Of a DNA stretch of 64,000 nucleotides, positions 47,103 to 47,528 are shown one piece after another. The stretch lies in the NCBI RefSeq assembly GCF_056712565.1, contig NZ_CM160072.1. One strand, written 5' to 3'. A program made the translations under genes and the position numbers. Every line of letters begins with the position of its first letter. Position 1 is the first letter of the stretch. Below the pieces are notes generated by a model. It ran no database searches and was not told where the DNA came from. It saw only the letters and a program-made list of their open reading frames with translations.

Positions 47103-47528
47103 TTAGTGCGGAAATATTTGTGTAGTGTTCTGAATGTTCTCAGTAAAGAGTAATGAATTATCAAAGGTATAGTAATACCTTTTGTTTTCGTGGATATTTG
47201 TAATCCATCTGAAAACCCCTGCTGTAGCAAGATTTTTCCTGTATTCGTAAAATGATAACTCTCCTGATTTGAATCCTTTTAAGGTGGCTTCTATAAGGCA
47301 TTTATTTTTTGAAAATCTTACATTTACAACCTTACCCTGTCCTTTTATTAAAACCGTATTATCGTTTTCAAGAACAAGATGAATATTCTCTGTGGCTAAA
47401 TAGTAAATGTAATGTGAGACATTGTGACGTTTTAGTTCAGAATAAAACCAGTGATAGTTTAAATTATTTCGCACTTTATCGAATATTTGTTTAAAAATGG
47501 CAATCTGAGCCATTGTAGTACCTTCCAT
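47103..47528 (-). CDS. AT-rich hypothetical protein (possibly YdfO/YbcV-like)
   Basis: 141-aa ORF in strongly AT-rich DNA between Rz and the terminase. Confidence 0.35.

Follow-up and report, generated by a model that had tools for sequence, protein, structure and literature searches.

The minus-strand open reading frame (ORF) at 47103..47528 of the window, the 64-kb stretch of DNA analyzed here, is almost certainly the prophage allele of an accessory gene known as lambdap78 in phage lambda, ybcV in the DLP12 prophage, and ydfO in the Qin prophage, whose product belongs to the Pfam family DUF1398. The gene is already known, with its exact protein in RefSeq, a Pfam entry, a solved structure, and a copy in lambda itself. 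The best overall explanation of its presence, to which we assign a probability of about 0.5, is that of an AT-rich, H-NS-silenced gene encoding an accessory protein that would act on the lysogen side by binding a partner.

The frame comprises 141 uninterrupted codons beginning with ATG, exactly as a preliminary description of this DNA had given it. Based on the ORF's own base composition, the probability of encountering no stop in 141 codons is 8.9e-6, and when the AT-rich block 47050..47650 was shuffled 2000 times, the observed stop-free run was never reached; hence, this is not a chance ORF. The true start of the gene is, however, most likely the second ATG at 47513, which corrects the 141-residue maximal ORF to a predicted protein of 136 aa. 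A GGAAGG Shine-Dalgarno motif is located 7 nt 5' of this ATG, at 47521..47526, and in the alignment with lambda, a 1-nt indel throws the upstream ATG out of frame, with both the Shine-Dalgarno motif and the second ATG conserved. We prefer the second ATG because of this spacing and of the out-of-frame upstream ATG in lambda. The RefSeq protein WP_000057035.1, an exact match from E. coli S88, also has 136 aa and begins at the second ATG, and the 141-aa form is used for PDB 2HH8 and underlies the corresponding PHROG profile.

The window is near-identical to E. coli S88, with 5 mismatches over the first 41 kb and colinearity up to 50149, and has two parts: a chromosomal stretch that runs from tyrT via hns and opp as far as ompW, and then a lambdoid prophage inserted beside ompW. 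Within this prophage, the DUF1398 gene occupies a slot with the Rz spanin gene at its left edge and the lambda-type cohesive end at its right edge (Table 1). Window position 48003 aligns with the final base of lambda, 48502, which places the cos end at 48003/48004, and beyond cos follow Nu1 (Pfam Phage_Nu1, E 2.3e-81) and then terminase. The position given in the preliminary description is thereby confirmed in each respect: the gene lies between the lysis and packaging modules, with Rz on one side and cos and Nu1 on the other; it runs on the strand opposite to the late genes Rz, Nu1, and A; and it adjoins a YnfO-like gene, which is a member of the YlcI/YnfO family (DUF3950).

Table 1. Features of the slot between Rz and cos, in window coordinates.
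Feature	Position	Strand	Basis
Rz spanin gene with embedded Rz1; left edge of cargo slot	46331..46795	+	Pfam Phage_lysis E 1.4e-52; 94% identical to lambda Rz
G+C-rich hairpin (GTCCGGTT...AACCGGAC)	47065..47095	.	folding, both strands
DUF1398 CDS, 136 aa, 16.3 kDa, pI 9.4	47103..47513	-	RefSeq CDS WP_000057035.1 in S88; Pfam; PDB 2HH8; dN/dS
ynfO–DUF1398 spacer, 57 nt, with the five extra codons of the 141-aa ORF (47514..47528) and GGAAGG	47514..47570	-	sequence, lambda alignment
ynfO-like gene, 77 aa, pI 10.9; N-terminal 55 residues conserved, tail variable	47571..47804	-	
17-mer AACAGGTCAGACCAGAT, putative PdhR site	47574..47590	-	exact single match in window
Imperfect palindrome ATCAATTAATACG / CGTCATAATTGAT, candidate operator	47874..47906	.	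inverted-repeat search: 13-nt arms, 85% complementary
Lambda-type cohesive end GGGCGGCGACCT (cosN); right edge of cargo slot	48004..48015	+	sequence

The content of this slot differs from one related phage to the next, and such variable presence in an inter-module slot is what is expected of a moron. Between YnfO and Rz, the slot is empty in phage YYZ-2008, contains bor alone in ev207, contains DUF1398 alone in the window prophage and in Qin-type prophages, and holds ybcW, DUF1398, and bor in lambda and DLP12. In all 80 of the 80 IMG/VR loci retrieved, the allele is at least 99% identical and its ORF intact, with flanking Rz and Nu1 genes that are 49-100% and 30-100% identical, respectively, and with the distance to Rz ranging from ~0.3 to 3 kb; the cassette remains at least 99% identical even at those loci where Rz and Nu1 are only 30-55% identical. 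In another lambdoid prophage, a 28%-identical DUF1398 gene is positioned between antiterminator Q and holin, co-oriented with the late genes. This Q–holin slot is the stx site in Shiga-toxin phages. Given the variation of the Rz–cos slot and the presence of a family member in the Q–holin slot, the gene is optional, mobile cargo. This cargo is very probably non-structural and non-essential; the lambda homologue lambdap78 was found to be non-essential by CRISPRi, its knock-down yielding EOP values of 1.9 and 1.3 with plating unchanged (PMC10695390).

The prophage itself is probably lysis-defective, given its split endolysin gene, which at 45498..46032(+) consists of two overlapping ORFs (45498..45740 and 45547..46032); the S88 copy, which has no mismatch to the window there, is marked by RefSeq as "lysozyme, frameshifted." In the window, the ORF for the large terminase (48669..50639, 656 aa) is intact; the S88 copy is frameshifted, with the two sequences parting from 50150. 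Three tRNA genes (Ile, Arg, Arg; S88 annotation) are located at 42869..43118(+), with the lysis cassette on one side and a gene for a DNA methyltransferase on the other. The prophage contains a second strongly AT-rich island (35633..37725(+), GC minimum 0.32) between the replication genes and hokD, in which two proteins annotated as "hypothetical" are encoded (320 and 333 aa), their below-threshold Pfam matches being to HEPN/RES N-terminal domain 1 (E 1.9e-4) and GNAT acetyltransferase (E 9e-4). A PADLOC search of this island returned no meaningful match, only PglX at E 0.009. The island may represent uncharacterized defense-like or toxin-antitoxin (TA)-like cargo, and may merit more attention than the DUF1398 gene. 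The gene for H-NS, the expected silencer of AT-rich prophage islands, is found in the chromosomal part of the same window, at 5664..6077(-).

Membership in the YdfO/YbcV (DUF1398) group, which the preliminary description had proposed tentatively, is now supported by both Pfam and structural matches. A Pfam search matched PF07166 (DUF1398) along its full length (profile positions 1-119 of 119) with 147 bits, against a gathering cut-off of 22 (E 3.3e-43), and PDB 2HH8, the NMR structure of E. coli YdfO, was matched at E 2e-69. The product thus has the fold of this solved member and is a single domain of 136 aa, within the ~130-140 aa of the family, that carries the family residues. Among 15 members, down to 21% identity, L27, T41, and G99 are invariant, and Y35, N43, A96, W103, and Y114 are near-invariant. 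The lambda copy, with 75.6% protein identity and a G+C content of 32.6%, is located at lambda 47048..47452(-), and is annotated there with an over-long GTG start. Across Enterobacteriaceae, homologues down to 25% identity retain the length and motifs of the protein. When the neighborhoods of distant homologues were examined for conserved neighbors, none were found, and the contexts are mutually unrelated.

We surveyed 5426 complete E. coli genomes by blastn with the 411-nt gene. Matches are present in 5375 of them, many being partial and falling on ycgX, a paralogue in the chromosome; in 3010 genomes, 80% or more of the gene is covered by a match, with ycgX explaining nearly all the rest. The best match reaches at least 99% identity in 1062 E. 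coli genome records, and a single genome can have up to 6 matching places. Near-identical copies from a wide range of hosts (S. aureus, Bacillus, a spider, Collinsella and Nanosynbacter MAGs, and a Campylobacter phage) were treated as contamination or lambda control DNA. A near-identical copy is also attributed to an Amphritea assembly, and further apparent homologues comprise 70-76%-identical copies on ~3.5 kb ENA contigs as well as 3.3-3.5-kb "lambda" records. Many of these sequences appear to be error-laden or contaminating DNA from the lambda right end or from E. coli prophages and not real diversity; their source may be the 3.6-kb lambda control amplicon of nanopore kits.

The G+C content of the 411-nt coding sequence is 31.1%, compared with 49.7% for the window, markedly lower than that of the host as would be expected of an H-NS-silenced xenogeneic gene. 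Only 0.05% of all 411-nt windows of the 64 kb are equally low, and the window-wide minimum for this length (30.4%) begins at 47096; the DNA that had been described as markedly AT-rich is, in fact, the most AT-rich part of the window. All three codon positions are AT-rich (GC1/2/3 of 0.37/0.26/0.31). Chromosomal DUF1398 members, from Citrobacter, Kluyvera, Raoultella, Salmonella, and others, likewise have a G+C content 5-15 points below that of their surroundings. As judged from these sequences, low G+C is a trait of the DUF1398 family, including its homologues outside prophages, besides being a sign of foreign origin. Of the earlier proposal that composition marks the gene as foreign cargo, the cargo part stands, mainly on the variability of the slot, whereas the argument from composition has to be qualified by the family-wide low G+C.

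Five alleles were compared, namely those of the window, lambda, ydfO, ybcV, and one further prophage, and dN/dS lies between 0.10 and 0.36 in all ten pairs, which indicates purifying selection; the gene is also intact. Most of the divergence falls in residues 58-92 (window 47238..47342), which correspond to the inter-repeat linker and the third helix. In the window allele, dN in this segment is 0.36 versus 0.06-0.14 in the flanks, and omega is 0.33-0.57 versus 0.14-0.33 elsewhere. Positive selection on these residues is not supported: dN is raised, but omega stays below 1. Natural chimeric alleles exist, such as P0006, which combines window-type ends with a lambda-type middle. The pattern across these alleles indicates faster evolution of the middle segment together with cassette-like exchange through intragenic recombination.

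The product is predicted to be small, basic, and soluble, with no signal peptide or membrane segment; no hydrophobic segment was identified in the protein, the maximum of a Kyte-Doolittle 19-residue window being 0.39. In the AF2 model (pLDDT 87), the order helix-helix-strand-strand-strand occurs twice, with helices 2-17 and 20-29 and strands 32-38, 43-48, and 53-56 in the first half, and helices 71-82 and 88-97 and strands 102-106, 111-115, and 121-126 in the second. When profiles of the first and second half are aligned with each other, the signal is weak (hhalign E 0.0017, probability 16%). An internal duplication is likely from the modeled structure and at most suggestive from sequence, and the fold is an orphan one, in which the tandem helix-helix-strand-strand-strand units form a two-layer platform. 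The residues conserved in 15 family members include no catalytic set.

A sigma-70 consensus scan of the minus strand identified no promoter upstream of either ynfO or the DUF1398 gene, and a terminator scan identified no canonical terminator after the DUF1398 stop and no terminator-like site in the spacer between the two genes. The G+C-rich hairpin starts ~8 nt past the stop, within a 175-bp block that is 82% identical to lambda; it has no minus-strand U-tract and non-significant z-scores, and is not reported by the terminator scan. This hairpin could possibly represent a transcript end or a buffer against convergent transcription. An Rfam search of the region returned zero matches at E <= 1. 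Upstream, the candidate operator palindrome lies 70-100 nt 5' of ynfO, inside a block sharing 97% identity with the right end of lambda. The 17-mer is identical to a PdhR gSELEX site located between ynfO and ydfO in K-12 (PMC7660256), but its significance is uncertain because the degenerate PdhR-box pattern shows no enrichment in the window.

Published transcript data on the paralogues describe responses to a range of conditions. ydfO was up ~117-fold by qPCR after ionic-liquid shock (PMC4077768), ybcV and ybcW were down ~10-fold in a pdhR mutant (PMC7660256), and the same two DLP12 genes were up >1000-fold upon over-production of T4 MotB, which interferes with H-NS (PMC7827196). ybcV was also up in a sabinene-tolerant strain (PMC7181518), ycgX responds to hha/ydgT and not to hns/stpA (PMC3686432), and a 2025 in-silico study arrived at no consistent inference for ycgX. 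The literature on the DUF1398 family holds no established function and no reported phenotype for any member. Protection from oxidative stress has been ascribed to YdfO (PMC4077768) with reference to Wang et al. 2010 (PMC3105296), a study of YfdK, YfdO, and YfdS of CPS-53 that never mentions ydfO. We rejected this attribution; the sole published claim of a YdfO phenotype is a mix-up of the names yfdO and ydfO.

The neighboring YnfO is probably a ribbon-helix-helix (RHH) DNA binder, and co-transcription of ynfO with the DUF1398 gene is plausible, given the 57-nt gap with no terminator detected between them. One way to read this arrangement is as a type II TA or abortive-infection pair, in which the role of RHH antitoxin and autorepressor would fall to YnfO, and the DUF1398 protein would be a toxin released upon phage attack or prophage loss. 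We consider such a pair quite unlikely. The linkage is not obligate: YnfO-like genes occur in 153 phage records versus 43 for DUF1398, in one prophage no YnfO gene lies within 1.5 kb of DUF1398, chromosomal homologues stand alone, and in lambda and DLP12 the two genes are 600 bp apart with an opposite-strand gene between them. The DUF1398 protein matches no known toxin fold or family, and no meaningful PADLOC match was obtained for this protein, for 15 family members, or for YnfO, so that a known defense system was rejected as well. YnfO seems to be a constant feature of the lysis/packaging boundary, and DUF1398 an optional insert next to it. Fusions of 177-233 aa annotated "PF07166+PF13132" (P0010, P0014) were discarded as a hint to function, being probably gene-calling artifacts that read through the ynfO TGA on short contigs; this TGA shares its frame with the first ATG of the 141-aa ORF, and read-through calls give a 233-aa "DUF3950+DUF1398" protein (P0014, 761 member sequences). 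In lambda, an unannotated 64-aa YnfO/YlcI-like ORF, whose tail differs from that in the window, adjoins cos (lambda 48109..48303(-)), and the annotated lambdap79, a YbcW homologue, is encoded on the opposite strand of the same stretch. A second alternative role is that of a nucleic-acid-binding regulator, in which the basic platform with conserved strand aromatics would attach to RNA or DNA and change gene expression in the host or the phage; in our estimate, this role is unlikely.

Existing annotation favors a further reading, in which the gene encodes a virion protein of the head or envelope. The protein matches PHROG 413, "head protein," at E 1.9e-89; the same label is found in NC_001416 and five other RefSeq phage records, the corresponding GenBank records have "putative envelope protein," "hypothetical protein," or "YbcV," and the JGI name is "Phage envelope protein." We rejected this reading as an unsupported label, and regard a virion role as extremely unlikely. 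The lambda entry in NC_001416 (47042..47575) is a GeneMark prediction and cites "Predicted by GeneMark" alone, and a search of records and literature for an experimental basis of the "head" and "envelope" labels found none. Neither the PDB nor the BFVD structural matches include a characterized structural-protein homologue. A match to a characterized morphogenesis protein is what the preliminary description had named as evidence against itself; no such match was found, the "head protein" labels being derived from GeneMark or similarity. Lambdap78 is not among the established components of the lambda head (gpE, gpD, gpB, gpC derivatives, gpW, and gpFII). The gene also runs antisense to the late operon and not with the morphogenesis genes, its product has neither a signal peptide nor a hydrophobic segment, homologues are found in chromosomal contexts with no phage genes nearby, and many lambdoid phages with comparable packaging and lysis modules do not have it. 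For the lambda homologue, dispensability for plaque formation has been reported (PMC10695390). The gene could also be a functionless passenger, carried along by its proximity to cos and by recombination with the packaging module. The literature knows no DUF1398 phenotype, the boundary is recombination-prone and 97% identical to lambda on the cos side, and the prophage appears defective in view of its frameshifted endolysin, all of which would fit a passenger. Such a gene would, however, not be expected to show dN/dS of 0.10-0.36 in 10 of 10 allele pairs, an ORF that is intact at every IMG/VR locus retrieved, near-identical best matches in more than a thousand E. coli records, or conservation of length and motifs in homologues as distant as those described above, and we judge this reading to be very improbable.

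We therefore return to the favored reading, an accessory protein of the lysogen that acts by partner binding, for which the following sequence of events can be proposed. The DUF1398 gene would be a lysogen-side "moron" and not a virion or lytic-cycle protein, and its transcription would probably run leftward, either jointly with that of the RHH-like YnfO gene or from just downstream of it. By analogy with other AT-rich acquired genes, H-NS probably keeps it mostly silent, with derepression under particular stresses; during lytic growth, antisense late transcription would oppose its expression. The protein would most likely act stoichiometrically, with its pseudo-symmetric platform as the binding site for a macromolecule of the host or of a phage, and the fast-evolving, recombination-swapped residues 58-92 may be a candidate specificity surface. 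The outcome would be an altered host physiology or an altered fate of an incoming phage, and not catalysis. Taken separately, the binding-protein mechanism is held tentatively, at somewhat less than an even chance. A broader version, in which DUF1398 proteins including lambdap78 would form a new class of single-gene, lysogen-expressed factors built on an orphan pseudo-dimeric platform, their binding to a target in the phage or the host serving to keep out superinfecting phage or to rewire a stress response, with residues 58-92 setting specificity and the RHH-like YnfO serving as local regulator, is unlikely as a whole.

The locus itself adds little. The value lies at the level of the family, which is among the commonest uncharacterized cargo genes of E. 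coli prophages and is present even in lambda, and in the correction of the start codon, the apparent errors of label and citation, the description of the slot, and the hypervariable, recombining middle of the protein. Correcting the "head" and "envelope" labels prevents mis-annotation of virion modules, and lysogen-benefit or anti-phage genes could reasonably be sought in the variable Rz–cos slot.

Among the closest known systems is YdfO of the E. coli K-12 Qin prophage (2HH8), with ~76% protein and 81% DNA identity to the window gene and with most differences in residues 58-92. The neighbors on the lysis side differ between the two, being cspI-ynfN-gnsB in Qin and Rz in the window. Lambdap78 and DLP12 YbcV share with the window gene the position between Rz and cos, the orientation antisense to the late genes, the AT-richness, and the conserved 175 bp downstream. 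Two elements of lambda and DLP12 are absent from the window: an extra 600-bp segment, with ybcW/lambdap79 on the opposite strand, that separates the YnfO-like ORF from the gene, and bor on the downstream side. YcgX and the other chromosomal DUF1398 genes of Enterobacteriaceae resemble the window gene in Pfam family, length, motifs (25-53% identity), and a GC below that of the surroundings, but stand alone: no lambdoid marker lies closer than 4 kb, and a YnfO partner is absent. The type II modules with RHH antitoxins (ParDE, RelBE, and MazEF of M. tuberculosis) are similar to the window pair in that the gene for a small, basic, probable RHH protein directly precedes, in the same orientation, the gene for a protein of ~130 aa; the window pair differs in not being obligate and in matching no toxin family. 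Finally, the lambda morons bor and lom encode envelope proteins with known lysogen expression and phenotypes, whereas the DUF1398 protein is predicted to be cytoplasmic. The works-like comparison with these two genes is that the DUF1398 gene, too, is probably dispensable, is located between functional modules, has a placement or orientation that would make it independent of late transcription, and is variably present among related phages.
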